This document shows, piece by piece, positions 1 through 34,989 of a DNA stretch of 64,000 nucleotides. Under the pieces are notes generated by a model. It did no database searches. It had not been told where the DNA came from and worked only from the letters and a program-made list of their open reading frames with translations. How positions within the stretch are numbered: position 1 is the first letter of the stretch; each line of letters begins with the position of its first letter. The stretch lies in the IMG/VR virus record IMGVR_UViG_3300025305_000013. One strand, 5' to 3'. Source of the DNA: an uncultured virus (IMG/VR IMGVR_UViG_3300025305_000013) (lineage: Duplodnaviria; Heunggongvirae; Uroviricota; Caudoviricetes). Both the position numbers and the translations under genes were made by a program.

Positions 1-6
1 GACTTT

Positions 7-35
7 AGTATACCTTAGTTTAACCCTTAGGTAAA
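7..35 (-). promoter_or_regulatory. sigma70-like early promoter firing leftwards out of the window
   Basis: Minus strand TTTACC (35-30), 17-nt spacer, TATACT (12-7); AT-rich UP-like tract upstream. Confidence 0.7.
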
Positions 36-50
36 GGTTTATTTTAAGTA

Positions 51-118
51 CGCGCCGCCGCCCGCGCCGCCCGGTTTTACGCCGCCCGCGTTTTACGCCG
101 CCGCCCGCGGGCGTAAAA
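51..118. repeat. GC-rich direct/inverted repeat block between divergent promoters
   Basis: Repeated GCCGCCCGCG and TTTTACGCC units ending in inverted GGGCGTAAAA. Confidence 0.7.
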
Positions 119-133
119 TAAAGTTAAAAACCC

Positions 134-162
134 TTTACTTAACGGCTAAGTTAAAGTATACT
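134..162 (+). promoter_or_regulatory. sigma70-like early promoter
   Basis: TTTACT(134-139)-N17-TATACT(157-162), A-tracts upstream, in front of ORF 249. Confidence 0.8.
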
Positions 163-248
163 AGGGTTAGTTAGGTTAATAACTTACTACCTAACTAAAT
201 AAAACTAAATAAACGTAAGTAACTAAAGTTAGTATAGGTATTAATACT

Positions 249-473
249 ATGGAAACTAAAAGTAAGGCTAAAGCCGTAAAAGTTAATTACGGCGGGCTTA
301 ACCCTAAAGCGGTTTATACCGCTACCGGTAAAATAGCCCGGGCTACCCATAACGCGGAGCGGCATACCGCGTTAAACGGTAAAACGGTAAAAGCGGCGCT
401 AGCTACCCGGTTAGTTAACGCCCAGGACATAAAGTACGACTTAGCTAAAGGCTTTATTACTTTGGAGGGGTAA
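249..473 (+). CDS. small basic early protein, DIKYD-family paralog 1 (putative DNA-binding)
   Basis: 74 aa with promoter and terminator; shares ARAxHNxERH...DIKYDLAKGFI with 1155 and 6550 ORFs. Confidence 0.85.
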   Translation: METKSKAKAVKVNYGGLNPKAVYTATGKIARATHNAERHTALNGKTVKAALATRLVNAQDIKYDLAKGFITLEG

Positions 474-483
474 TAGCCTAACG

Positions 484-511
484 GCCCGGGCTTAACCGCC
501 CGGGCTTTTTT
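484..511 (+). terminator. rho-independent terminator
   Basis: GCCCGGGC-ttaacc-GCCCGGGC followed by T6. Confidence 0.85.
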
Positions 512-532
512 ACGCCTAAATTTCGTGTTGAG

Positions 533-715
533 AAGCCGCCGCTAAAGCGGCGTAGCCCGCGGGCTACGCCTAGTTTTATTTAATTACGGTGGCACGGCTT
601 ACCCCCTTAGTAAACTATAAGCTACCTATTTAAGCTAGCTAGTAGGTAGGTAATACTTAACCTTAATTTATATATTAGGGTATTAGGTTTTTATTACCTA
701 CCTAACTAACTAACT
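533..715 (-). ncRNA. candidate early non-coding transcript
   Basis: Downstream of minus-strand promoter 750-722; 13-bp stem TAGGTAGGTAATA/TATTACCTACCTA; GC hairpins at 533-570; only a 3-codon ORF. Confidence 0.35.
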
Positions 716-721
716 AAACTA

Positions 722-750
722 AGTATACGGTAACTAGTACTAAAAGTAAA
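722..750 (-). promoter_or_regulatory. sigma70-like early promoter
   Basis: Minus strand TTTACT(750-745)-N17-TATACT(727-722), A-tracts upstream. Confidence 0.75.
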
Positions 751-851
751 GGTTTATTTTAACTTATTTTACCGCTACGTTGCGATCACATTGCGATGGC
801 ACTATAAGCCTACCAAAATCGCACGAGGTCCTGCGAAGTCTTATATACAAG

Positions 852-917
852 TAAGAGGGAACGTGGTTACAGATAAGAGGGAACGTGGTTACAGATAAGA
901 GGGGACATGGTTACAGA
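852..917 (+). repeat. 22-bp tandem repeat x3
   Basis: TAAGAGGGAACGTGGTTACAGA x2 plus one variant copy. Confidence 0.9.
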
Positions 918-1018
918 CACGACGTATCACCGAGGTATCCGCGAAGTTTCACCGAAGCATCCGCGAAGTTTCACCGAAGCATCCGTGAGGTATCACCGAG
1001 GCGTCCGCGAAGTTTCAC
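917..1018 (+). repeat. second 22-bp tandem repeat, about 4.5 copies
   Basis: CCGCGAAGTTTCACCGAAGCAT at 939 and 961, variants at 917, 983, 1005. Confidence 0.9.
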
Positions 1019-1080
1019 TATACTAGCTACCCAGTGAAATGATCTTGCGATCATACTGCTAAAATAAAATAAACTAATGC

Positions 1081-1109
1081 TTTACTTTTATACTAGGGTT
1101 TAGTATAAT
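1081..1109 (+). promoter_or_regulatory. sigma70-like early promoter
   Basis: TTTACT(1081-1086)-N17-TATAAT(1104-1109); UP-like AAAATAAAATAAA upstream. Confidence 0.85.
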
Positions 1110-1154
1110 GTCTATAATTAGGTAATAAAGCCTAATTAATATCGGAGAACGGTA

Positions 1155-1394
1155 ATGTCACAAAGTAAAAAAACAACTAGTAAGGTAAAAGTGTCAGAAG
1201 TAAAAATTAATTTAGGCGGGCTAAACCCCGATCAAATTATTCTGGCAACGGGTAAGTTAGCGCGGGCCCAACATAATGTCGAACGTCACACGGCGTTAAA
1301 CGGCATGTCAGTGCGAGAAGCGTTAGCTAGTCGCATGGTTAACGCCCAAGACATTAAGTATGACTTGGCACGCGCGTTTATTATTCTGGAATAG
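1155..1394 (+). CDS. small basic early protein, DIKYD-family paralog 2
   Basis: 79 aa, GGAG RBS; co-linear with ORF 249 (GGLNP..ATGK.ARA.HN.ERHTALNG..V..ALA.R.VNAQDIKYDLA). Confidence 0.85.
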   Translation: MSQSKKTTSKVKVSEVKINLGGLNPDQIILATGKLARAQHNVERHTALNGMSVREALASRMVNAQDIKYDLARAFIILE

Positions 1395-1405
1395 GGTAAT
1401 AAAAC

Positions 1406-1439
1406 GGGCCGGGTGGCACTAGCCGCCCGGCCTTTTTTT
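1406..1439 (+). terminator. rho-independent terminator
   Basis: GGCCGGGTGGC-acta-GCCGCCCGGCC then T7. Confidence 0.85.
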
Positions 1440-1449
1440 ACGCCCGTAA

Positions 1450-1940
1450 GTTGCGATCGCAACGATGATCCCATTAGACCTCCGGCCACAGTCCACGAAC
1501 CCTACTCCGTGGACCATGAACCAGAGGAAACCTGTTTACAGAGGTTTTTCTATGAATCATGAGCAAGAGATGATCACATTGTGATCACACTGGGATTACA
1601 AGGATGATGGCAGTGCGATCAAAGTCCATGGACCATGGTTTACATCACAATGGGAGAAGATAGAGGGACCATGGTTACCATGGTTCATGATTCATGGCTC
1701 AAGATCACAATGCCATCCCCCCTATTACAATAAATACAACTAATAGGATTTGGGGCATAAATCATGGTTCATGGCTTGTGGCCGGGGGGTTTTTTAACCG
1801 AGGTCCGTGGCCGGATCAAAAGTTAGTTCTATATATACGTCCTCAATTTCTAGAAGTCATATACTAAAACTCGCTTACATGCTTTATCACAGCTATCGGA
1901 GATGACCATCCCCGTACCATGAACCACAGTCCATGGTCAC
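1450..1940. other. non-coding CATG/GATC-dense block
   Basis: About 13 CATG and 7 GATC counted by eye; no ORF; lies between converging transcription units. Confidence 0.65.
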
Positions 1941-2106
1941 TATTACCTGCCAAAAGCCAATAGGTCGCTAATAGGTCAGCCAATAACCCACAAATAGCGA
2001 CCAACCACACGGACTCCAGACAAAAAGCTATTACCTTATTGGCAAAAAAGAAATTTTTTGTGAAAACAAAACTCTATTTTTCGCTCCACTACTAATAGAA
2101 GCAGCG

Positions 2107-2535
2107 TTATTCACCACTCCAAGCCCATCGCGAGGTATTTTCAGGCAGAGGAACCTTAAAATATTCAGTAGGAGCCGACGCCAGTAGGCAACCATATAAA
2201 GACATAGCTAAATAAAAGTATTCACCACTGGTTGATTGAGCAACTTCGAGAATACTATACGAACTACCGTCAGACACAGGAAAGTTACAGCTGTCATAGA
2301 TAGTATACCACTTTTCTTCACCGTTTAAGTCTTTCAGTAACTCTTCAAGATGTTTCTCATCATGCCCTTCACACTCACTGAAATGATAGCCTATTTTGAC
2401 ATGATTGCTGAGATGACTTAATATAGGTTTTAATACCGCAAGTACCCTTTGAGTTTCTGAGTCTTCTTTCTTATCCGAATCTTCTAGAAACTCGGATAAG
2501 CCGTTGTTTCTAAGTATATCTTCCTTACTAACCAT
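2107..2535 (-). CDS. hypothetical protein, paralog of 3156..3575
   Basis: 142 aa, GGGGAG RBS, behind repeated promoter motif. Confidence 0.75.
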   Translation of the reverse strand: MVSKEDILRNNGLSEFLEDSDKKEDSETQRVLAVLKPILSHLSNHVKIGYHFSECEGHDEKHLEELLKDLNGEEKWYTIYDSCNFPVSDGSSYSILEVAQSTSGEYFYLAMSLYGCLLASAPTEYFKVPLPENTSRWAWSGE

Positions 2536-2543
2536 TTCTTTCT

Positions 2544-2604
2544 CCCCACTACTTATTTACCGTACCCCTATAGTAAGGTAGAAGTTAGTCCTTCCCTAGG
2601 ACAA
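2544..2604 (-). promoter_or_regulatory. repeated phage-specific promoter/leader, copy 1
   Basis: Minus strand TGTCCTAGGGAAGGACTAACTTCTACCTTA..ATAGGGGTACGGTAAATAA..GTGGGGA. Confidence 0.75.
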
Positions 2605-2616
2605 TTGCAGTTATTG

Positions 2617-2871
2617 TTACCATAATCCTCCATCGAAGTCGAGTTCAACGTTGTACAGTTTCTCTATGGCAAAGCCTAAACTGCCAGTATAGTCAGGGCC
2701 ATCTCCGACAAACCAGCCACTTCCACCATGATACTTCTTATAGATGTCGTCTTTCACCAATTTAACATTAAAGCACTCACCATAATCCTCAGAGTGCTCC
2801 ATGATTTCTCGTAACTTTTTATTGGGACCCCCATGGTCCTCAATAATTCTTATTAGATCAAATTTATTCAT
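2617..2871 (-). CDS. hypothetical protein (start reassigned to MNKFDL)
   Basis: ATG at 2871 overlaps the end of ORF 2864..3073; the longer call overlaps that gene extensively. Confidence 0.65.
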   Translation of the reverse strand: MNKFDLIRIIEDHGGPNKKLREIMEHSEDYGECFNVKLVKDDIYKKYHGGSGWFVGDGPDYTGSLGFAIEKLYNVELDFDGGLW

Positions 2872-3073
2872 AAACCCAACACTCCCCGTTAGTCCACGTG
2901 CCGATATGTACACCGGAGCCGTTGTAATAGAGCGTAAGCCAGTTTGCAGCCCCCGTTCTTTCATCCCAGTCCAAAATTGTATCGGACGTATACCCCCGTT
3001 GACCACTTATACGCTTGGACAAGTAGTCTTCAAAGGTTGTTTTACTTTGCTTGGGTTGGTGTTTTGTTTTCAT
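2864..3073 (-). CDS. hypothetical protein
   Basis: 69 aa directly behind promoter copy 2 with GGGGA RBS. Confidence 0.7.
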   Translation of the reverse strand: MKTKHQPKQSKTTFEDYLSKRISGQRGYTSDTILDWDERTGAANWLTLYYNGSGVHIGTWTNGECWVYE

Positions 3074-3081
3074 AGTTTAGT

Positions 3082-3145
3082 TCCCCACTATTTATTTACC
3101 GTACCCCTATATAATAAGGTAGAAGTTAGTCCTTCCCTAGGACAA
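3082..3145 (-). promoter_or_regulatory. repeated phage-specific promoter/leader, copy 2
   Basis: Near-identical to 2544-2604. Confidence 0.75.
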
Positions 3146-3834: not shown

Positions 3835-3893
3835 TCCCCACTATTTACCTTACCTATATATTATAAGTAAGAATAAATTCCTTCCCTAGGACA
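3835..3893 (-). promoter_or_regulatory. repeated phage-specific promoter, copy 3
   Basis: TGTCCTAGGGAAGGA...TTACTTATAATATATAGGTAAGGTAAATAGTGGGGA. Confidence 0.7.
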
Positions 3894-4589: not shown

Positions 4590-4628
4590 CGTACCCTAAT
4601 AATAAGGTAGAAGGCGGTCCTTCCCTAG
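4590..4628 (-). promoter_or_regulatory. repeated phage-specific promoter, copy 4
   Basis: CTAGGGAAGGACCGCCTTCTACCTTATTATTAGGGTACG. Confidence 0.7.
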
Positions 4629-4662
4629 CATATATGTTATTAATCTATAAGGAATTTTTACA

Positions 4663-6100: not shown

Positions 6101-6166
6101 TTCCCCCTATACTTATTTATTTATAACGTTAGCTATTTTATAAGTGATGGGTTATTTTCCCTAGGA
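6101..6166 (-). promoter_or_regulatory. repeated phage-specific promoter, copy 5 (diverged)
   Basis: TTCCTAGGGAAAA...CACTTATAAAATAG..TAAATAAGTATAGGGGGA. Confidence 0.55.
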
Positions 6167-6483: not shown

Positions 6484-6546
6484 AAAAAAGAGGAGTGCAA
6501 TCATCACTGACCACAGGAGTGCAATCATCACTGACCACACCCCCCA
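6484..6546 (-). terminator. terminator carrying an exact 24-bp tandem duplication
   Basis: AGGAGTGCAATCATCACTGACCAC x2 (6491-6538); G:U-rich stem then T6 after gene 6550. Confidence 0.55.
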
Positions 6547-6549
6547 AAA

Positions 6550-6885
6550 TTATGACGTTAAAGTCATAAAGCCCTTCGCGAGATCGTAGCGAATATCGCG
6601 AGCATCCACCCTACGGGAAGCCAGCGCATCTCTCACGGTTAGCCCATCCATGTCTTCATGCCGCTCTTGGTTATGGGTTGCTCGAGCTATTTTATCTGCA
6701 TTATTCTTTAAAATAGCGTCAAGATCCAAACCCCGAGCACTTACGACTTTCTCGGCTGCTTCTTTAGCAATTTTTGCCAAAGGGCGTTTAGCCGAAGGAG
6801 CCTGTTTTGCGGATTCCTTTTTGCTAACAGTGCTCTTAGCCTTTTTAGAGGAGCCTATACTCCTCACTTTATTTGCTTTTGCCAT
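6550..6885 (-). CDS. DIKYD-family paralog 3 with Lys/Ala-rich N-terminal tail
   Basis: KIARATHNQERH..DGLTVRDALASRRV...DIRYDLAKGFM; AAAGGAGA RBS. Confidence 0.85.
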   Translation of the reverse strand: MAKANKVRSIGSSKKAKSTVSKKESAKQAPSAKRPLAKIAKEAAEKVVSARGLDLDAILKNNADKIARATHNQERHEDMDGLTVRDALASRRVDARDIRYDLAKGFMTLTS

Positions 6886-14771: not shown

Positions 14772-15782
14772 TTAGTTAGATTTTCTACCCAACCATTCCC
14801 AACAAGCCTTACGCCAATCATCTGCTTTACATTCTTGTATTTCAATCATTGCTTCTTCAATCTGCCCTGATTTATATAACCACCAAGAATTTTGTATCGG
14901 TGCGGCAACGTGTGTAAAGAAAGGGTCTTCATATATAGTATGGTCAAATGGTTTTCTATCGAAGAATCCCAATAGATCCAAGTCCCATATTTGTATATCT
15001 GTATTGACTATAGGGTACGGTTTTACCATTTCTGCTGTATAGGGGTTTAAAGCAAGAAATCTTTTTTGTGTAAAAAAGTCCATTGCGTCTTGTTCTATAA
15101 ATTTATTAAGCAATGGTTCAAACACCACATTATAAGCATGATAGTTATCGCTGATTTGATAATACTTACCCACAGATACACCAATAGCCGTAGCCATATA
15201 TTCCTGTAGCATAGACATATGCACTACGTTTGCTCCGTAAGCCCCCCAAATTATGTCATTGGATCTATTACAAACAGTCATTTGTAATTTTCCCTCTAGG
15301 TCTATCTTGAAATAGACACAAGTATTACAAGGGACATCAGCACCGTCTCTATCTAAATCTTCAACAGGATCCCACATTTGTAATACAGATCTTCTATCTT
15401 CTGGATTCTCTTTTAGTCTTTTAATTATGATTGGTATTTGATCACGAAAAAACCAAGACCGCCATCTCCAACCATAAGCACCGTGCAAGGTTTGGCCGTC
15501 ATCGCTGAATTCTTTCATTCTTTTGTTATATTGATAAACAAATTCGAGGTCATACCCTCCCTTTATCATCCACAAGGCTTCCATAAAATGAAAGAACGGG
15601 TTTGCGTTACGCTCTTTCCAAAATAAAACCCTCTCTTTCGGCTTACTGTAGACGGTAGTTACCGGCGTAGGAGCCTGAAAAACTACTCCATTTCGGCTCT
15701 CTGCTTTTACTCCATTTGTATATAAAAAATCAAGACCCCGTAAAAGAGCATCATGTGCGTTCCTTACATTAAGAACTTTCAT
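14772..15782 (-). CDS. thymidylate synthase-like protein, probable dUMP hydroxymethylase
   Basis: SRNG, NPFFHFMEALW, GAYG.RWR, DRR, catalytic PC, RSNDIIWGAYGAN (Asn specificity residue indicates dUMP), NYHAY. Confidence 0.85.
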   Translation of the reverse strand: MKVLNVRNAHDALLRGLDFLYTNGVKAESRNGVVFQAPTPVTTVYSKPKERVLFWKERNANPFFHFMEALWMIKGGYDLEFVYQYNKRMKEFSDDGQTLHGAYGWRWRSWFFRDQIPIIIKRLKENPEDRRSVLQMWDPVEDLDRDGADVPCNTCVYFKIDLEGKLQMTVCNRSNDIIWGAYGANVVHMSMLQEYMATAIGVSVGKYYQISDNYHAYNVVFEPLLNKFIEQDAMDFFTQKRFLALNPYTAEMVKPYPIVNTDIQIWDLDLLGFFDRKPFDHTIYEDPFFTHVAAPIQNSWWLYKSGQIEEAMIEIQECKADDWRKACWEWLGRKSN

Positions 15783-16551
15783 TTATTCCGTCCTTATATG
15801 CTTTTTTCCAACTAATTCTCACATCTTTACGGGGTAAACCGCCCCAAGCAGTTTTAGTTTGTTTTTCCACAAGTTTAACATGATCAGGGTGAAGGTCGTG
15901 TAGTCTTTGCGCCCCTTCATTGTGGACGTCAATTGTGCGCCACTCACTACAGCCTCCTTCTGCGTTTGATGATTTTTGCCCTTGAGCGTAGTAATAGCTT
16001 ACCTTATTTGCTTTACCTTCTCTTAATAGTTGTAGGGCAATGTCAAAGTCTTCCATTACTCTAGTTCTTCCCCACTCCACACTATCAGGGAATACTTCTA
16101 GGTTATATCCCAACACACGCATATACCGAGTATTTTCTACCGATAAGTTTTTTACATGGTTGTTACCTTCTCTTGCGCTTATACCAACATGAGCATAACC
16201 CTGATCCATCCACTCATCTAGCAAGCCGAATAGAGCAGGATATTCGCTCGATTGAAGATATCGAAGGTGCCAATCAATAGGACTTTTACGAATATAGAAC
16301 CGTAAGTCATCATCCAACATAACTATACGAGGGTCTTCTACATTTTCTACTATATATTTACGTTTTGGACCAATACCTATGCAATCACTAGGTACAACCA
16401 TTCTAGGTGTGTCTGGGTAGTTGTGGTATTTATCTTTTTCATCTTCATCTATTACTAATACAACTGATCCGTCTCTCTGCATTTCTTTAGGAAACCACCT
16501 TAAAGTTTCCTGATTATAGGGTCTTCCCCTTGTGGGAATATATATTTTCAT
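15769..16551 (-). CDS. GT-A fold DNA glycosyltransferase-like protein (TET/JBP-associated GT type)
   Basis: IYIPTRGR, IG.KR..I, MLDDD, EDFD..LQLL..G, SNAEGGCS motifs; within modification cassette. Confidence 0.8.
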   Translation of the reverse strand: MKIYIPTRGRPYNQETLRWFPKEMQRDGSVVLVIDEDEKDKYHNYPDTPRMVVPSDCIGIGPKRKYIVENVEDPRIVMLDDDLRFYIRKSPIDWHLRYLQSSEYPALFGLLDEWMDQGYAHVGISAREGNNHVKNLSVENTRYMRVLGYNLEVFPDSVEWGRTRVMEDFDIALQLLREGKANKVSYYYAQGQKSSNAEGGCSEWRTIDVHNEGAQRLHDLHPDHVKLVEKQTKTAWGGLPRKDVRISWKKAYKDGINESS

Positions 16552-17051: not shown

Positions 17052-17900
17052 TTATTTTTCCCCTGCATATTTATATTTTGATCTAGGTCTGCCTTCCCCT
17101 AAACGAACTCTTTCGTACTTATCAAATTCACAAAGACAATGCTCTATTTCTCTCATCTCCAGTTCTTTATCGAGAAGGAATAGAATATTCTGGTTAAAGT
17201 TAGTGAGTAAACTTTTCATTTCTTGGGTAAGTTGATCTTCTTTAATAGCTTGCTTAAGAGATCTACCGTGTATTCTATTTAACCCTCGTTTTGCTCCTGG
17301 ACCAGCGTTAGCCCAAGTCATAATGTCTTCAGCATTTTCTAGGTGTCGGGTGTGACGTAAATCGGTAACGACTTCATAGGACATAAACCCGCTGAAACCA
17401 GCATAGGGGAGATAATTTTTCCAAGTTTCTTTAAGGGAGTGCGGTATTATTTCAGGAGGGTTATGATACACAGGGGTGAGAATTTTATCTACAGTTTGTT
17501 GTACTTTAGTCCCTCCTAAAGTACCGGTTAACATATACGCTCCTGTGTAAACTTTTTCTCCTCTGTCCATTCTAGCTTGCATAATTTCTTTAGTTCTTTC
17601 AGGGTTCCAGTAATAAGGGAAGCCTATTTCTTCTAGGGTATCTGGCCAATTTATTTGGCGAGCCATGGACATGGCAAAAGGCAAATTTGGATGATCGGCG
17701 TAGGGTTCCCTCCAATTTTTTCGTATCCAAATAGTGACCTTGTCTAACTCCCTGAATACATTACAGAAACTGTAGGTTTGAAGTATCTTATCCTCAGTCC
17801 ATGGAAAAGGTTCTCCCTCCTGACGTTTTAGATAAATCCTATGTCTTTCGTTTATATAGCGAAAGAAACGATGCTCCGCTGCTTCTATGTCTGAAGTCAT
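17052..17900 (-). CDS. 5-hmdU DNA kinase-like protein (aGPT-Pplase1 helical family)
   Basis: ERHRIY.KR..G.P.PWT.D.IL..Y.FCNVFRE.D, YTGAY, GFMSYEVVTD, GPGA.RGL, IEH.LCEFDKY.R. Confidence 0.85.
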   Translation of the reverse strand: MTSDIEAAEHRFFRYINERHRIYLKRQEGEPFPWTEDKILQTYSFCNVFRELDKVTIWIRKNWREPYADHPNLPFAMSMARQINWPDTLEEIGFPYYWNPERTKEIMQARMDRGEKVYTGAYMLTGTLGGTKVQQTVDKILTPVYHNPPEIIPHSLKETWKNYLPYAGFSGFMSYEVVTDLRHTRHLENAEDIMTWANAGPGAKRGLNRIHGRSLKQAIKEDQLTQEMKSLLTNFNQNILFLLDKELEMREIEHCLCEFDKYERVRLGEGRPRSKYKYAGEK

Positions 17901-18042: not shown

Positions 18043-18627
18043 TCACAATCCTGTTCTGAATGTGAGACTAATTCTCTCCCCCACATCTTCCATAATCGGT
18101 ATTGCATGAGTACTGGTCATTTGAGAATTTCCATCAAAGATGTATACATCTCCATCTTCTAATAGATATTGTTGTGTTCCTAGATAGTTATCTTCATGGA
18201 GGATATTGATTTTGCTGGTATTACTTTCCCTTTTTATTTGATAATAGTATTGATTCCATTCCAATATTCTCGAAGCACCAAAAGATACTCCCACTACTAA
18301 ATCTTCTAATGTGGGTACTGTGTCTGAATGATGAGGGATACTTATTTGCCCCGTTTTATAAAGCCCACACAAACAAAAATTAAACCTGACAATCCTATCT
18401 AATTCTTTAGAGACTAGCGATTCAGTGGCCATTTTTACCTGTAAAATAGAAGGGGTCCATTTTGTAGGTTTGTAGGTTTTTCCTGCGTAAACAAAGGTTT
18501 TTGTTCCGTACCCTTTTGTTGGTCGCCCTTCAACCTTTTCACCGTTAAACTCACGTGTGGTTGGTTCGTCCCAATTCTTTATGGCCGGGTCGTACCCTTT
18601 TAATTTTCCCTTTAAAAAGTTGATCAT
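18043..18627 (-). CDS. AlkB-like 2OG-Fe(II) dioxygenase
   Basis: FNFCL..Y..G..SIPHHSD, VSFGA.R, THAIP, RISLTFR. Confidence 0.85.
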   Translation of the reverse strand: MINFLKGKLKGYDPAIKNWDEPTTREFNGEKVEGRPTKGYGTKTFVYAGKTYKPTKWTPSILQVKMATESLVSKELDRIVRFNFCLCGLYKTGQISIPHHSDTVPTLEDLVVGVSFGASRILEWNQYYYQIKRESNTSKINILHEDNYLGTQQYLLEDGDVYIFDGNSQMTSTHAIPIMEDVGERISLTFRTGL

Positions 18628-23325: not shown

Positions 23326-23616
23326 AATTCTTGTCTCTTACTTATTGGGGTAAACGAAACTTATACCTATTTATTATAGGGTAATTTTATTTGGATAAAA
23401 GCATCCGTGGTAAAAAAATGATAATAGTCAATAAGCTAATAGGGTGCTAGCTAAAATTCTTTATAAATTAAGTACCTATGGAATTATTGACAAAAGTATT
23501 ATCGGGGTATTAGCGGTTTAGTGGTAATTATGCTAAAACATGTATATATTCTTAACCTTTTCTATACGATACTACGGTAAAGCCTATTTAGAAAGGACTT
23601 ATAAAAAAGAAACCTG
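23326..23616. promoter_or_regulatory. AT-rich divergent intergenic region (promoters, candidate origin)
   Basis: Minus-strand TTACCCTATAATAAATAGGTA near 23363-23384; YAATA/TATTR repeats. Confidence 0.5.
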
Positions 23617-25056
23617 ATGAACTTTTTATTCAAAACAAAACCTTACCAGCACCAACTAGACGCCTTGAACACTTCTTGTGAAAGAAAAGAGTTTGCTCTC
23701 TTTATGGAAATGGGGTGCGGTAAGTCTAAGGTTGTAATTGATAATTTTATTTATCTGTATAGACAAGAAAAACTAAACGGGGTTGTCATACTTGCCCCTA
23801 AGGGAGTCTATGACACATGGTACAGTAAAGAGATACCAAGGCACACCCCAGAAGAAACCAATTACCATGTTGTAAAGTGGTCTAATTCTAGTACAAAGAA
23901 AAACAAGAAACTGTTATCCAGTTTGTCAGAAGAACCCGAAAGGCTCAATATTCTTATAATGAACATAGAAGCACTGAGTACAAAAAAGGGTACTCAGTTT
24001 GTGACTGATTTTTTATTCAAAAGAAAATCTATGTTCATAATAGATGAAAGTACAACCATAAAGAATCATAAAGCAAAAAGAACAATTAACGCTGTTCGTT
24101 TAGGGAAATACGCCTACTACAAAAGAATACTGACCGGTAGTCCGGTAACTAAGAGTCCTCTTGACTTATATAGTCAGGCATATTTCTTAGATCCTAGTTT
24201 ATTGGGCTTTAGTAGTTACTACTCGTTTAGAGCGAGATATGCTAATCTAGCCGCCCGTTCTGCTAACGGTAGGACGTATAAGCAGGTACTAGGGTACAAA
24301 AACCTGACAGAATTAAACGAGAGTCTCCTTGAATTTAGTAGTAGAGTACTGAAAAAGGACTGTTTAGATCTTCCTGATAAAATCTACCTGAAAAGAAGTA
24401 TTCAAACAACAGATGAACAAAGACGTATCTATAAAGAACTACAAAAACAAGCGAAGGCTTCTCTTAGTCAGGGGACAGTGACTATAACACATCTAATTAC
24501 TCAGATAATTAGATTACATCAAGTTTCTTGTGGTTTTGTAAAACTTGACAACGGTAACATTACTGAAATACCTAATCAAAGATTACCGGAGCTCCTGGAA
24601 ATACTGGAAGAAACTGATGGTAAGGTAATTATCTGGGCCAACTATAGGCACGATATTCAAAAAATAGAAAAGGAACTAGCTAAACTTTACGGAGAAGAGT
24701 CAATAGGTACTTACTATGGAGATGTGCCACAAGACCGTAGAGAAGAAGTGATTAATAAATTTCAAGACCCGGACAGCCCGCTACGATTTTTTGTTGGTAA
24801 TACACAGACCGGCGGGTATGGTATCACTCTAACTGCTGCTAATACTGTTATCTATTATTCTAATAACTATGATCTAGAAAAGCGGCTTCAGTCTGAGGAT
24901 CGGGCGCACCGTATTGGTCAAACCAATAAAGTCACCTATATTGATATTGTTTGTGAACGCACAGTAGACGAAAAAATAGTTAAGGCACTAAGAATGAAAC
25001 AAAATATTGCTCAAACAGTGCTTGGTGAAGAAAAATGGAAAAATTGGTTGGTTTAA
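23617..25056 (+). CDS. SNF2-family SF2 helicase
   Basis: PYQHQ, MEMGCGKS, IIDES, ILTGSP, GYGITLT, QSEDRAHRIGQ. Confidence 0.92.
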   Translation: MNFLFKTKPYQHQLDALNTSCERKEFALFMEMGCGKSKVVIDNFIYLYRQEKLNGVVILAPKGVYDTWYSKEIPRHTPEETNYHVVKWSNSSTKKNKKLLSSLSEEPERLNILIMNIEALSTKKGTQFVTDFLFKRKSMFIIDESTTIKNHKAKRTINAVRLGKYAYYKRILTGSPVTKSPLDLYSQAYFLDPSLLGFSSYYSFRARYANLAARSANGRTYKQVLGYKNLTELNESLLEFSSRVLKKDCLDLPDKIYLKRSIQTTDEQRRIYKELQKQAKASLSQGTVTITHLITQIIRLHQVSCGFVKLDNGNITEIPNQRLPELLEILEETDGKVIIWANYRHDIQKIEKELAKLYGEESIGTYYGDVPQDRREEVINKFQDPDSPLRFFVGNTQTGGYGITLTAANTVIYYSNNYDLEKRLQSEDRAHRIGQTNKVTYIDIVCERTVDEKIVKALRMKQNIAQTVLGEEKWKNWLV

Positions 25057-26210
25057 GTTGGTAGGATGCCGACAAGACCACCTAGATTTCTTCTTGTTCT
25101 TGCAGCACTCGCTGCAGGCATTGATTGTCTACCTAATGCCCCTCGAAGTTCTTCAATTTGTTGTTGTAAATTAGTTGGGTCAAATCCTGGAATTTTTCTA
25201 TTCTCTAGAGCACCCAACCTCGCTTGAAGATCACTCGGATCAAACCCTGGAATTTTTCTATTCTCTAGAGCACCTAGCCGCCTTTGAAGACCACTCGGAT
25301 CAAACGTAGGAATTTCTCTATTCTCTAGAGCACCTAGCCGCCCTTGAAGATCACTCGGATCAAACCCTGGAATTTTTCTATTCTCTAGAGCACCTAGCCG
25401 CCTTTGAAGAGCACTCGGGTCAAATCCACCTCTATTCTCTAGAGCACCTAGCCGCCCTTGAAGACCACTCGGATCAAATCCACCTCTATTCTCTAGAGCA
25501 CCTAACCGCCTTTGAAGACCACTCGGATCAAATCCTGGAATTTCTCTATTCTCTAGAGCATCTAACCTCGCTTGAAGACCACTCGGATCAAATGCAGGAG
25601 GAGCTACTGTCTCCTCTCCGGCTTCTAATAAAGAAGGAGGAGCCCATCTAAGGGGAATTCCCTCTATCCCAAAACCGCCGGCAGCCGGTGGTCCGGGTCC
25701 AAGATCATCCTTAAAAATGAAGTGTTTCTCCTGATCTAAAAGCGAGTCAATATAATCCCTATCTCCAGAGATTGAGTCAATAAAGTCTCTATCAGAGAAA
25801 TCATTATGTTCTGATATATAAGCAGATTCAGGTAGACCATGTGCCTGGGCTACTACCGTATAATCATTTAGCGTTTCTTGACGTGGAGTCGTCGATGCTG
25901 GATATACTGGATATGAAGGTGGACGTGGGTTAGCCCCGACGCCACCGCCACCACCGTCGTCTGAAGGTGGAGATAAGAACCTTCGGTAAGTCTCCCTTTG
26001 CATCTCCATTAATTTTTCTCTATCGGCTTGCCCACCGGGGTCTGTTCTTGGGGGATTAACTAAAGAAGCTATCCCCGGAGCACGGTCATACATCCTTGCT
26101 AAATGATCTCCCAGAGGACTAGGGCTAGGTCTAGGGGGTCTTTTATTTGGGGGGACTTGAATTGGTCGCGGTGGCGGCAGCGAAGGATTTCTTCCAGTAT
26201 ATAAAGCCAT
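25053..26210 (-). CDS. Pro-rich virion-associated protein with tandem coiled-coil repeats
   Basis: Seven FDPSGLQxRLGALENR(KIPG/GG) repeats plus one partial; last gene of late operon. Confidence 0.7.
   Translation of the reverse strand: MALYTGRNPSLPPPRPIQVPPNKRPPRPSPSPLGDHLARMYDRAPGIASLVNPPRTDPGGQADREKLMEMQRETYRRFLSPPSDDGGGGGVGANPRPPSYPVYPASTTPRQETLNDYTVVAQAHGLPESAYISEHNDFSDRDFIDSISGDRDYIDSLLDQEKHFIFKDDLGPGPPAAGGFGIEGIPLRWAPPSLLEAGEETVAPPAFDPSGLQARLDALENREIPGFDPSGLQRRLGALENRGGFDPSGLQGRLGALENRGGFDPSALQRRLGALENRKIPGFDPSDLQGRLGALENREIPTFDPSGLQRRLGALENRKIPGFDPSDLQARLGALENRKIPGFDPTNLQQQIEELRGALGRQSMPAASAARTRRNLGGLVGILPT
25176..25592. repeat. coding tandem repeat of 54- and 60-bp units
   Basis: TTCTCTAGAGCACC recurs at 60-nt then 54-nt spacing. 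Confidence 0.9.
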
Positions 26211-31945: not shown

Positions 31946-33556
31946 TTATCTTACTCCCATGCCCATACCGCGCCCGCGCTGTTGACTTGTTAAATACGGA
32001 TTCGGCGGGGATAAGCCTGCAGTGCCTCCCGCCTGTGGGTTAAGCTGCAAATTTGTCGGCGGTCCCTGGTGTACCCCGCCCGTGGCTGTGCTGCCACTTG
32101 GATTATTAAATGCTCCGTATGCTGTGAGTGCTGTTCCTGCCGCTTGCATAAGTGGATTAGTTTGCTGTCCTGTGGTCTTCTGCTGTAAAGTTGTACCACC
32201 CATCGCCGGAGACCAACCCGTAGCCATATCGCCTACCTGCCCGAGCGTTTGCATCGGTAGATTATACTGACCTACGAAATTACCGTAACCTAAGTCTAAT
32301 CCACGTTGGTCCATTCCACGTTGCATACCGCCTATACCCATCATTCTATTAATATCCGTTCCCAATAGCTGACTAGCGCCATAACCAAGCCCGGACATCT
32401 GTTGTCCTGCCCCCATGCCAAGTTGTCCTAACTGAGCCCCAGCTCCAAAGACATCTCCTGCCGCCCCGCCATAAATATTGGCTAAATTACCGCCAAGACT
32501 ACCTATTCCTCCAGCAGTAGTGCCGTACATCCCGGCTAAATTACTACCGAGACCAGCAATTTGAGTTCCCATACCCGCTCTTTGACCAGCTATTGTACCT
32601 AGCCTAGCACCGATATCAGATTGTTGAGCACCAAGCCCCGCCAGTAGGTTTGCTTGATTTGCTTGACGTGCTTGTTGTGATTCAAATGCTGCTTGTGCTC
32701 TGCGTGCTGCGTCTTGATAACCCCCCGCCCGTATAGCGCCAACTTGTTGGGTGGCACCTCTAGCTGCGGCTTCTGCGAGTTCCTGTCCGGCTAACCGGCT
32801 CCTAGAACCGCCAAACGCCCCTGCGCCAATTTCTCCAGCTCTGCGCGCAATATCGCCCTGAGCTAAACCTTTACGCACGTCCTCCATAGTTTGTTGAACG
32901 ACTTGTTCTTCATAAGGATTATAAAAATCAGACACCCCCCCATAACCCCCAGTAGGAGGAGTACCACCAGGCCCACCAAGTATCCCCGCAGAACCGCCGG
33001 GAGAAAACATACCAGTTGCCCCATAACCGGTTCCGGCAGCTTGACTGAGCCTACCGAGTCCTCCACCCGTTACATCTCTGGCTCCTCTAAGTTCTCTGCC
33101 GGATGCGTCTATTTGTCCCATTCCTGCTTGAGTAGCCTGTCCAGCTATTCCCGGGGCTTGTCTAAGCAACCCCATTGCTTCTTCGGTACTCATTTCGCCA
33201 GCTTGAACTGCTTGATCTATTAAATTACGAGTATCTCCATAAGCATCAGTCACTGCTCCTAGGCCACTTTCCGTCAATTGTTCTCCTCTTTGAAAGTACG
33301 GTAAATAGGAACCCATGCCTTCCGCAGTCATTCTCATTGCTTCTCTTTCTGCGGGAGCAAAATCTGCTATACGTTCACCAGAGTAAGTGTATGGATTTGC
33401 TCCCTCTACACCGAACCCCATCATTCGGTTAACAAGCTCTTGATTCAATAGAGGCATGATTCCTGGAACATTTGTTCCGGGAGCGCCACTATAAAATTGT
33501 GCTAGATAATTTGGTGGGAATTGTTCTTCCCGTAGATATTCACGTTCAGTTGCCAT
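31946..33556 (-). CDS. Gly/Ala/Gln-rich ejection (pilot-like) protein
   Basis: NPYEEQVV, GAFGGSR motifs; G/A/Q-rich helical repeats. Confidence 0.65.
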   Translation of the reverse strand: MATEREYLREEQFPPNYLAQFYSGAPGTNVPGIMPLLNQELVNRMMGFGVEGANPYTYSGERIADFAPAEREAMRMTAEGMGSYLPYFQRGEQLTESGLGAVTDAYGDTRNLIDQAVQAGEMSTEEAMGLLRQAPGIAGQATQAGMGQIDASGRELRGARDVTGGGLGRLSQAAGTGYGATGMFSPGGSAGILGGPGGTPPTGGYGGVSDFYNPYEEQVVQQTMEDVRKGLAQGDIARRAGEIGAGAFGGSRSRLAGQELAEAAARGATQQVGAIRAGGYQDAARRAQAAFESQQARQANQANLLAGLGAQQSDIGARLGTIAGQRAGMGTQIAGLGSNLAGMYGTTAGGIGSLGGNLANIYGGAAGDVFGAGAQLGQLGMGAGQQMSGLGYGASQLLGTDINRMMGIGGMQRGMDQRGLDLGYGNFVGQYNLPMQTLGQVGDMATGWSPAMGGTTLQQKTTGQQTNPLMQAAGTALTAYGAFNNPSGSTATGGVHQGPPTNLQLNPQAGGTAGLSPPNPYLTSQQRGRGMGMGVR

Positions 33557-34989
33557 TATGCTCTCCCTATCCCCAGTCCTTTAGCTTTATTTTCATTGGT
33601 TTGCATCATGGTATATAAATGTTCTATTCCTTGTTTATGATCACCATCCCCCATCCCCATTACGCTCTGTTTAGTCATCACAAATTCTCCATCGCTTAAC
33701 ATGGCCGGTACATCGTCTGATGTTCCTGTACCGGGACCATACGACGCACCACCGCCTCGTAGATCTAATTCGTAGATGGGTCCTCCGTGCTTAGCACGAG
33801 TTCTTTTAAACTCAGGGAACATCAAATCGCTGTATTCTTCATCATCTAAGGTTTCTCTTAAAAAGGCAGCTGTAGCTGGGTCTAATGTTTCACCATCGCT
33901 TAAGATGGGTCCTCCGTTCTTAGCATAAGTTCTTTTAAATTCAGGGAACATCAAATCGCTGTATTCTTCATCATCTAAGGTTTCTCTTAAAAAGGCAGCT
34001 GTAGCTGGGTCTAATGTTTCACCACCAACTATCCCTGCTCCTGTGGGCAACATTGACCCCGGACCACCGGCCCCTACACCTTCTATGCCGTATTGGGTGG
34101 GTAAAGAGGCGGCGGTGAGTGGTCTTTGTAGATAATTGTCGAGTTCTCCGCTGGGGGGAGGCATTTCAGAAGTATCTTCCCCACCTTCAAAACCGCCAAG
34201 AGCTCCTAAACCCATCATTGATGCGGCCATTTTTTGAGGTCCAGACAAATTAGACCATGCATCTCCTATTGATGGAATCTCTTGAGCAACGCTAATAGGT
34301 GGTCCACCGTAAAGCCCCCCAAGAGTTCCAGGGGCAGGCGTAGTTGCCACAGGAGCTCCGAGGGCCTGGGCACCTTTTGCCCCTACATTTTGGAAAAATG
34401 CTCCAACCCCCTCTCCTGCTGCCGGGGTTGCTTCCCATCCCCACATTCCACCTTCACCGGCTGATTTAAATAAAGAACCGATTCCTTGACCAGATTGACC
34501 GCCCTTAAGACCAGCCCCCTGACCCATACTCCCGAGCATATAACCAGTTGCTGCGTGTTTCGCGGCTTGTTTTATATCTCCTCCATATTTTACCGTTGAC
34601 CCAAGAGCACCACCGATTGCTGCTCCTAAAGCTGCAGACCCTCCTGGTCCACCGTATATAAAGCCCACAATCTTACCGATTTCAGGAGCTACTTTTTTGA
34701 GGAATTTACCAATCTTTTTGAAAAAACCAAACTCCGGCACACCTGTGAGCGGATTAATTGAATTTTCAAAATGGCCTACTTGATATTGATTAGGGTTGAG
34801 CTCGTGTCTCTCAAAGGCGTCAAACAACTGTCTTTTTAAGACAGGATCATCCGCTATAGGTCGAGGAAGAACCATCTCTCCCGGAGTGAGATGTCCTATT
34901 GTTGTGTCCCCATAACGACCATGCATAGCTAATGCATAGCGAGCATCAGCTAATTCTTCTAGACTTTGTAATCCTTGGGTATTTTGCAT
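33556..34989 (-). CDS. Gly-rich internal virion protein
   Basis: GRYGDT..HLTPGE, INPLTGVPEF, GPGTGTSDDVPAMLSDGEFVM motifs. Confidence 0.65.
   Translation of the reverse strand: MQNTQGLQSLEELADARYALAMHGRYGDTTIGHLTPGEMVLPRPIADDPVLKRQLFDAFERHELNPNQYQVGHFENSINPLTGVPEFGFFKKIGKFLKKVAPEIGKIVGFIYGGPGGSAALGAAIGGALGSTVKYGGDIKQAAKHAATGYMLGSMGQGAGLKGGQSGQGIGSLFKSAGEGGMWGWEATPAAGEGVGAFFQNVGAKGAQALGAPVATTPAPGTLGGLYGGPPISVAQEIPSIGDAWSNLSGPQKMAASMMGLGALGGFEGGEDTSEMPPPSGELDNYLQRPLTAASLPTQYGIEGVGAGGPGSMLPTGAGIVGGETLDPATAAFLRETLDDEEYSDLMFPEFKRTYAKNGGPILSDGETLDPATAAFLRETLDDEEYSDLMFPEFKRTRAKHGGPIYELDLRGGGASYGPGTGTSDDVPAMLSDGEFVMTKQSVMGMGDGDHKQGIEHLYTMMQTNENKAKGLGIGRA
33774..34024. repeat. 129-bp-period in-frame tandem duplication
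   Basis: GETLDPATAAFLRETLDDEEYSDLMFPEFKRT..K.GGPI twice, near-identical DNA at 33774 and 33903. Confidence 0.9.

Follow-up and report, generated by a model that had tools for sequence, protein, structure and literature searches.

A promoter and gene zone almost free of T before G or C in an uncultured phage with thymidine-hypermodification genes

Introduction

How can a phage that decorates its own thymines keep its DNA readable? Thymidine hypermodification is a shield against host nucleases, and to our knowledge it has hardly been asked how the phages that carry it keep their own decorated DNA readable. The question is raised by the left end of a 64,000-nucleotide (nt) stretch of DNA from an uncultured marine virus of the Caudoviricetes (IMG/VR record IMGVR_UViG_3300025305_000013). 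We refer to this whole stretch as the window, and the coordinates of the zone described here are window positions. An earlier note had drawn attention to early promoters and a small first gene (gene 1) at its left end that seemed to be purged of CA, TG, GA and TC, in a genome that appeared to encode the synthesis of modified thymines falling mainly on T followed by G or C. We call these four dinucleotides TS steps, since each is a T before G or C when read on one strand or the other. Counts, shuffling controls and comparison with relatives were used to examine this zone, which we read, with a probability of about 0.55, as an expression cassette that stays free of hypermodification.

Results

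TS steps are purged from the left end of the window

The zone spans positions 1–780 and has no strand of its own; it is bounded on the left by a G/C-only tract adjoining the window start and on the right by a TG at 781. The absence of all four dinucleotides claimed for 2–248 and 596–780 was borne out by count. CA, TG, GA and TC each occurred zero times, where base composition predicts 16.8, 12.9, 14.0 and 15.5 in the first segment and 10.4, 9.1, 8.4 and 11.2 in the second. A GA begins at position 1 and the first step past the zone is the TG at 781, an end as abrupt as had been described. Composition-preserving shuffles gave 59.4 ± 5.7 TS steps for 2–248 (shuffle minimum 36) and 39.0 ± 4.6 for 596–780 (shuffle minimum 24), and over 2–780 as a whole we counted 18 steps against 190 ± 10.2 in shuffles (z −16.9). 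The description of 2–780 as one purged stretch had to be corrected, as 474–595 is not TS-free and holds seven steps in two small clusters, at 523–533 and 590–594. Among 200-base intervals over the 64 kb the mean was 46.6 TS steps (standard deviation 7.3), and counts of 20 or fewer occurred only at starts 1–651, while the TS content of the whole genome equals expectation.

Only CA/TG and GA/TC are lost from the zone, the other eight strand-symmetric dinucleotide classes being present, and apart from the residual steps every T has A or T as its next base. TA stands at 1.9 times and AT at 0.5 times expectation, because the rule forces G/C runs to be entered from A and left through T. The zone did not show the loss of 4–8-base, mostly palindromic words that marks restriction-site avoidance; palindromic hexamers such as CCCGGG, GCTAGC, GTATAC, ACTAGT and AGTACT are kept. 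The sequence itself was confirmed by matches to an IMG/VR contig (100% identical) and a metagenome contig (99.97% identical), and at least 94% of the window's sampled words were present in each of 14 public runs. A further record of the same phage (G001) is 99.995% identical over window positions 6530–45919, and the zone lies outside its span. Among GenBank phages, a nucleotide search with window 1–3000 and a protein search with the product of a second gene, the paralogue of gene 1 described below, returned no match.

Promoter-like sites and a recoded gene lie within the zone

The promoters claimed for the zone were recovered as sigma70-like sites. TTTACY-N16-18-TATAMT has four sites in 64 kb against 0.29 expected, and none of 100 shuffles reached four. 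All four are consensus matches of the form TTTACY-N17-TATAMT within 7–1109, and three of them lie inside the zone; TTTACY is the closest TS-free form of TTGACA. The site at 7–35 (minus strand, TTTACC-N17-TATACT) points left over the G/C tract towards the late operon. The one at 134–162 (plus strand, TTTACT-N17-TATACT) lies upstream of gene 1, that at 722–750 (minus strand, TTTACT-N17-TATACT) is convergent with the gene 1 promoter, and the fourth, at 1081–1109 (plus strand, TTTACT-N17-TATAAT), lies upstream of gene 2. Inverted copies of the promoter region, at 126–174 and 710–758, enclose the gene 1 unit. An exact 17-nt direct repeat on the plus strand has one copy at 31–47, overlapping the −35 side of the leftward promoter, and the other at 746–762 on the opposite flank of the unit. 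Gene 1 is followed on the plus strand by an intrinsic-terminator-like hairpin with a T run (483–512) and by a second hairpin, a perfect palindrome with a T-rich tail (549–580); a further terminator-like hairpin (1406–1443, plus strand) follows gene 2. In a search of Rfam at E ≤ 1 nothing was found but sub-threshold matches over the terminators.

Gene 1 (249–473, plus strand) encodes a protein of 74 amino acids and is recoded against TG and TC on both strands. It holds 11 TS steps (CA 4, TG 2, GA 5, TC 0), and nine of these come with Met, Glu, His, Gln or Asp codons and are unavoidable, in line with the claim that steps occur there almost only where residues demand them; the two unforced ones lie in a TTG codon at 463 and at the GAC|ATA junction at 428. 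When synonymous codons were redrawn at the phage's own usage, the gene had 43.9 ± 4.3 steps and a minimum of 25 in 20,000 trials, the attainable floor being 9, and the depletion therefore survives codon as well as base-composition controls. Step-forcing residues make up 9 of the 74 amino acids, compared with 16 of 79 in gene 2 and 23% in long genes, and those left in gene 1 stand at invariant or nearly invariant positions of the family.

Gene 2 (1155–1394, plus strand; 79 amino acids, 66% protein identity to gene 1) had been called unpurged. This holds in so far as it is far from the level of gene 1, but with 43 TS steps against 55.7 ± 4.6 expected (P = 0.004) it is mildly depleted. All 12 types of base change separate the two genes (32 transitions, 41 transversions), which argues for selection on sequence rather than one mutational signature and led us to reject hypermutation resembling repeat-induced point mutation or of the deaminase type. 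A third, longer paralogue of 111 amino acids (6550–6885, minus strand), 56% identical over 62 residues and unpurged, lies among the early genes, and its long form of 93–111 amino acids is also present in relatives.

The AlphaFold2 model of the gene 1 product (predicted local distance difference test score 85.6) has the order strand-helix-helix-helix-strand. Foldseek against the PDB gave nothing at E ≤ 0.001, the best VIA-align matches (Z 5.0–2.6) were to winged-helix domains among other folds, and the protein atlas yielded nothing beyond weak resemblances to winged-helix-like or unnamed viral proteins. Searches of Pfam and PHROG placed neither gene 1 nor gene 2 in a family, and going by the predicted model the product may be weakly winged-helix-like.

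The genome encodes thymidine-hypermodification genes

The modification cassette that the earlier note had placed at 14.8–18.6 kb is indeed there. Its kinase, a homologue of the 5-hydroxymethyldeoxyuridine (5-hmdU) DNA kinase (17052–17900, minus strand), matches PF18723 HMUDK_hel with E 2.4e-50 and 171.9 bits against a cut-off of 25, and is 43–45% identical to YuA gp14 and to YuA/M6-like Pseudomonas phage relatives over 94–98% of its length. A thymidylate-synthase homologue (14772–15782, minus strand; PF00303 E 2.3e-23, phrog_5131 E 1.9e-122) is a candidate deoxyuridine monophosphate hydroxymethylase, hydroxymethylase and methylase being indistinguishable by sequence alone. It is joined by a TAGT-like glycosyltransferase-family protein (15769–16551, minus strand; TAGT family E 4.4e-23, phrog_842) and by a 2-oxoglutarate-Fe(II) oxygenase, assigned by profile matches, that adjoins the kinase block (18043–18627, minus strand). 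For an aGPT-Pplase-type transferase, no Pplase-type Pfam match was found among 20 window proteins scanned.

The TG/TC context, which the note had put forward, is in print, and the dinucleotide set missing from the zone is that published context. According to excerpts of PMC6449724, the sites at which M6, ViI and phiW-14 DNA resists restriction have TG or TC in common, and the kinase is credited with this. For an Acinetobacter phage, an excerpt of PMC13458397 reports a diaminopropane-thymine preferentially at TG, with TC modified less often and TT or TA far less. Partial text of PMC8989533 and PMC5889632 describes 5-hmdU conversion as sequence-specific, with motifs still to be identified in 2018. 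As to transcription in vitro, the available part of PMC6457204 reports that Escherichia coli RNA polymerase yields about 350% of its normal output on plain 5-hydroxymethyluracil templates, 37% after phosphorylation by 5-HMUDK and less than 15% with a bulky group. In Carin-5, an unrelated 155-kb phage, hypermodified thymine hampers amplification, according to an excerpt of its description.

The purge recurs in relatives

The small protein forms a narrow marine family; each of its 53 clusters has 63% or more identity to gene 1, and the small gene was compared across 71 metagenome and 24 IMG/VR loci. Among 98 distinct coding sequences the TS-step fraction ranged from 0.012 to 0.247, gene 1 of the window (0.049) not being extreme. 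The purge was found to follow the promoter-gene-terminator unit, as the layout of four strongly purged loci (L065, L052, L071 and L072) and the two-copy loci described below both illustrate. Each of the four has a TS-dense repeat block, a TS-free TTTACT-N17-TATACT promoter, the gene and a terminator, and after this cassette a G/C tract and then a conserved late promoter with TS steps. Strongly purged copies give up even conserved Glu, Asp, Gln and His; in L065 HNAARH replaces HNAERH, and one L069 copy retains only two forcing residues. Across the 98 sequences, TS fraction and forcing-residue fraction were correlated (Spearman 0.47, the rows being phylogenetically non-independent). In the 100 nt upstream of 81 copies, CA+TG occurred 241 times and GA+TC 298 times, against 747 expected for each.

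Two short copies occur at 20 of 100 loci, a count that includes some contigs fetched twice, and usually one copy is purged and the other normal, in tandem, convergent or divergent arrangement; the purge tracks one gene copy regardless of order or orientation. In a maximum-likelihood tree of 84 distinct proteins, purged and normal copies that come from one genome group as sister sequences with good support (97/88 for L057/L102 and 99/95 for L075–077). The label 'purged' changes at least four times on supported branches and ten times on the best tree, which rests on a short alignment that leaves many forks unresolved; purged/normal pairs arose or were kept in at least four lineages. Three relatives of about 75% DNA identity (G002–G004) give a continuous map of portal, terminase, further genes, a large gene, the G/C tract, the small gene, the control region and the early genes, with the small gene inverted relative to the window.

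Comparison of phages with and without the kinase

The earlier note had asked whether relatives without the modification genes share the purge. We found the kinase in five of the ten relatives' records searched, namely G002 and all four rated at least 99% complete (G007–G010), and the five records without it are fragments of 9–22 kb. No kinase-less relative with the same purge was found among them, and the kinase is present in four of four near-complete carriers of the small gene. In G009 and G010, one of the two convergent copies has beside it a zone of about 100 nt, composed of neighbouring TS-free runs (36+65 and 55+57 nt), and a second TS dip lies where the replication genes begin. By DNA polymerase, the closest GenBank relative is 023Pt_psg01. 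Over the 50 of its 59.8 kb examined it showed neither the kinase nor a thymidylate-synthase homologue, and neither TAGT nor the small gene; it has no zone (minimum 22 TS steps per 200 bases), and a TS ratio of 0.90 was obtained for its intergenic DNA. In the window this ratio is 0.46–0.68 for early and 0.79–1.32 for late intergenic regions, compared with 1.00 for coding DNA. The second most TS-depleted stretch of the window is a divergent intergenic region heading the replication genes (23326–23616, no strand; ratio 0.58, z −4.7).

An observation of a different kind concerns YuA, an M6-like phage that carries the kinase and whose promoters have been mapped. Its 'cofactor-dependent' promoter repeats (NC_010116.1, 7722–7749, 10500–10527, 22639–22666, 29058–29085 and 31098–31125), annotated as needing a phage cofactor, use TTTACT-N17-TATACT hexamers like the window's four promoter-like sites, which links this promoter type across distant kinase-bearing phages.

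The left edge and a possible genome end

An IMG/VR contig of the same phage, L001, starts 17 nt to the left of window position 1, inside the G/C-only tract. Metagenome contig L019, the 99.97% match mentioned above, crosses this junction, its position 2498 being window position 1. Left of the junction, L019 carries a promoter region besides the tract GGGGGTGGGGCGGGGCCGGGGGC, and also a large gene on the minus strand (at least 778 amino acids, normal TS content); the purge begins right at the tract. The tract itself (L019 2474–2496) lies between the zone and the late-operon promoter and consists of four G runs of the G-quadruplex type (G5-T-G4-C-G4-CC-G5). Several assemblies break in or beside it, and in relatives a shorter tract, C6-G-C6, takes its place. 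Assembled as contigs, two of four public runs break at the tract (one of them, X6, at the exact start base of L001) and two cross it. Such breaks need no physical end, because G runs and strain variation could break assemblies. The contig ends of the near-complete G007, G009 and G010 lie near window 45–46 kb, and G008 ends elsewhere in the window.

Contig depth differs about threefold between the right and the left of the junction (L019 2423–2498), with 64 versus 22 in X6 and about 21 versus about 7 in X10, these values being per-contig means that sum related strains. The zone contig of X6 has a depth of 63.9, compared with 51–40 to its right and 22 to its left, and that of X10 a depth of 20.6, compared with 13–15 and 4–7. 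We drew nothing from these values, because in a mean that sums related strains a strain mixture, a packaging start and other causes are indistinguishable. A cos end at the tract was considered and not adopted in view of the crossing contigs and of the relatives' ends elsewhere; judged from the sequence, a physical end there is possible.

Flanking control regions and other features

To the right of the zone, a TS-rich repeat block (781–1059, no strand) with TTGCGATCA motifs on its flanks lies between divergent promoters. Its units, at 846–1029, are three of 22 nt (TACAGATAAGAGGGAACGTGGT type) followed by about nine of 11 nt (CGAAGTTTCAC / CGAAGCATCCG), and the spacing of the latter equals one helical turn; the array may be bound by a protein. 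A TS-dense control region (1445–2106, no strand) with GATCACA/CCATGG and related repeats lies in the interval from gene 2 to where the minus-strand early genes end. Over 1445–2066 it is very dense in GATC-containing palindromes (TGTGATCACA, GCGATCGC), along with CCATGG/TCCATG repeats, and homologous regions occur in L008, L052, L065, L071 and L072. In relatives these regions reach 20–22 TS-type steps per 50 nt and directly adjoin the TS-free cassette.

Nearly all remaining genes of the window are on the minus strand. Five small early genes are preceded on that strand by a CCTAGGGAAGG box (2590–2600, 3131–3141, 3880–3890, 4619–4629 and 6155–6165), which sits about 10 nt upstream of a TAtTATA element, and these regions are TS-free for 30–43 nt from the −10 element to the ribosome-binding site. 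Three of the five intergenic copies at 2.6–6.2 kb are exact, one has one mismatch and one has two. The box may mark an activator-dependent promoter class. As a genome-wide promoter class it was rejected, since its 11 matches at two mismatches are fewer than the 15.2 expected by chance, and we regard it as a local motif. Two further genes contain repeats. A gene for 385 amino acids (25053–26210) has internal tandem repeats at 25164–25599, with staggered self-matches of 82–88% in the alignment of G001 with the window, and the gene at 33556–34989 holds two adjacent copies of about 122 nt (33774–33895 and 33903–34024) that are 95–97% identical.

Discussion

The zone has the appearance of a self-contained unit, with three sigma70-like promoters, a small gene and terminators, and on both of its strands T hardly ever stands before G or C. 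Phages in which the 5-hmdU DNA kinase route has been examined carry the mark chiefly on the T of TG and TC; by analogy, the zone would carry ordinary thymine only, since no T there precedes G or C, while the rest of the packaged genome would be decorated at about a quarter of its dinucleotide steps. A zone left undecorated would therefore keep its promoters and the template of gene 1 readable by unaided host RNA polymerase in any modification state, including that of fully modified DNA that has just entered the cell. Gene 2, the normally written copy behind a TS-dense operator block, would serve the other DNA state. The evidence suggests an island that the phage has written, undecorated and always readable, into its own DNA. 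That the phage modifies thymine at TS steps, that this hinders host transcription here and the timing of expression are matters we infer from its genes and from published work on other phages. Because purged and normal pairs recur and TS-free DNA is sharply juxtaposed with TS-dense DNA, the two DNA states are suggested to be used for regulation.

Several observations weigh against a hypermodification-free cassette. Evidence for the published TS context comes mostly from other phages, in the form of restriction-resistance patterns. All other genes of the window, which must be transcribed as well, are full of TS steps, and the conserved late promoter adjoining the zone contains them too. The near-complete, kinase-bearing G007–G010 purge the small gene only weakly, and the intergenic comparison with and without the kinase has a single control genome, 023Pt_psg01. 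YuA has no TS-free zone (its lowest 100-base interval has 12 steps, the mean being 25.4), and TS steps occur in its promoters; as it has the kinase, the kinase pathway alone does not demand such a zone.

Thymine hypermodification could further act as a timer, an extension of the cassette reading that we offer tentatively and think rather unlikely in this full form. Host RNA polymerase would read only the TS-free cassette on the incoming, fully decorated genome, so that the small regulator would be made immediate-early; TS-rich operators and TS-containing promoters would be active only later, on newly replicated, undecorated DNA, and the purged and normal paralogues together would give the same regulator in both states. 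If this held, dinucleotide-free islands would reveal the modification context of uncultured phages from sequence alone.

A purge of this kind might also serve the physical end of the genome, where ordinary DNA could be needed for terminase recognition, for end joining by host ligase or for the passage and initial entry of the leading end, in the manner of the T7 leading segment or the first-step-transfer DNA of T5. Three assemblies (the window, L001 and the X6 contig) stop within 17 nt at the zone's left edge, the G/C-only tract lies exactly there, a terminase gene is found about 5 kb past the junction on the opposite side, summed contig depth (a per-contig mean over strains) rises about threefold in two of four runs, and an excerpt of PMC6449724 reports that ligation of phiW-14 fragments is reduced. 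We nevertheless judge this improbable. L019 and the contigs of two of the four runs cross the junction, the ends of G007–G010 lie elsewhere, and the tract's four G runs or strain variation could account for the breaks. In L071 a TS-rich stretch parts the purged cassette from the tract, in two-copy relatives the purge stays with one copy in whatever order or orientation, and a purge that reaches codons and amino acids would be needless for a terminase or ligase site. Comparably doubtful is evasion of a host factor whose targets are very short words on RNA or single-stranded DNA (an ADP-ribosyltransferase of the CmdT type, a DarT-type enzyme or a dinucleotide-specific ribonuclease), under which neither the sense nor the antisense transcripts made first would offer it a target. 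For CmdT, modification of GA in single-stranded RNA is described in part of bioRxiv 10.1101/2024.02.24.581662, and the ribosome-binding region of gene 1 lacks GGAG. Moreover, given the convergent promoters at 134–162 and 722–750, both strands are possibly transcribed, and an RNA-level rule would therefore look strand-symmetric. However, no known factor reads UG, UC, CA and GA together, CmdT explaining one of the four, and 36–133 lies outside the transcripts predicted from the promoter-like sites, barring long read-through. Every near-complete relative with the small gene has the kinase, and a set that is closed under reverse complement and equals the context of a phage-encoded enzyme family is more simply accounted for by that enzyme.

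The reading could also be turned round. If the kinase of this lineage, which is just 43–45% identical to those studied, marked T in TA and TT, the zone would be the most modified and best protected DNA, since each T there precedes A or T and the zone is uniform either way. The published preference for TG and TC with TT and TA rarely modified, as far as the excerpts of PMC6449724 and PMC13458397 go, and the clear assignment of the kinase to its family make this less credible still. A local mutational process or neutral drift without selection has in its favour the local nature of the depletion and nothing else, and we consider it very improbable: gene 1 and gene 2 differ by base changes of all 12 types, the open frame and the conserved residues persist, with Glu, Asp, Gln and Met exchanged where they are dispensable, TS content is at expectation genome-wide, and the purge recurs in at least four lineages.

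If the zone is a hypermodification-free expression cassette, it would represent a new genome design, an island that escapes the phage's own modification through absence of the target dinucleotide, kept at an amino-acid cost and reinvented in several lineages as purged/normal gene pairs. The cassette, its promoters and the paralogue form a ready-made system for testing. The literature searched held no description of modification-free islands in hypermodified phage genomes.

Among known systems, the hypermodification of M6, ViI, phiW-14 and SH-Ab 15599 comes closest. The window shares with it the kinase Pfam family, a thymidylate-synthase homologue and a transferase-like gene, and the dinucleotides missing from the zone are the modified context there. 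Those studies give modification sites, however, and not a part of the genome that escapes modification, whereas the window is known from its genes and has a TAGT-like protein with no aGPT-Pplase-type match among the proteins scanned.

The leading end of T7 and the first-step-transfer DNA of T5 and BF23 carry strong host-type promoters and avoid 4–8-base host restriction sites. The zone resembles them as a segment of about 0.8 kb with a cluster of host-type promoters (by consensus match) and a small gene, in which a DNA-reading activity would find no target and which may belong to the part of the genome that is first to enter. It differs in that two dinucleotide classes are avoided and many palindromic hexamers stay, and in that the avoided activity would be the phage's own. 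mRNAs without ACA escape the MazF toxin, and like such motif-poor genes (ACA for MazF, GA for CmdT) gene 1 appears rewritten at an amino-acid cost against a very short target. Unlike them, the zone follows a strand-symmetric rule that extends to non-coding DNA and promoters.

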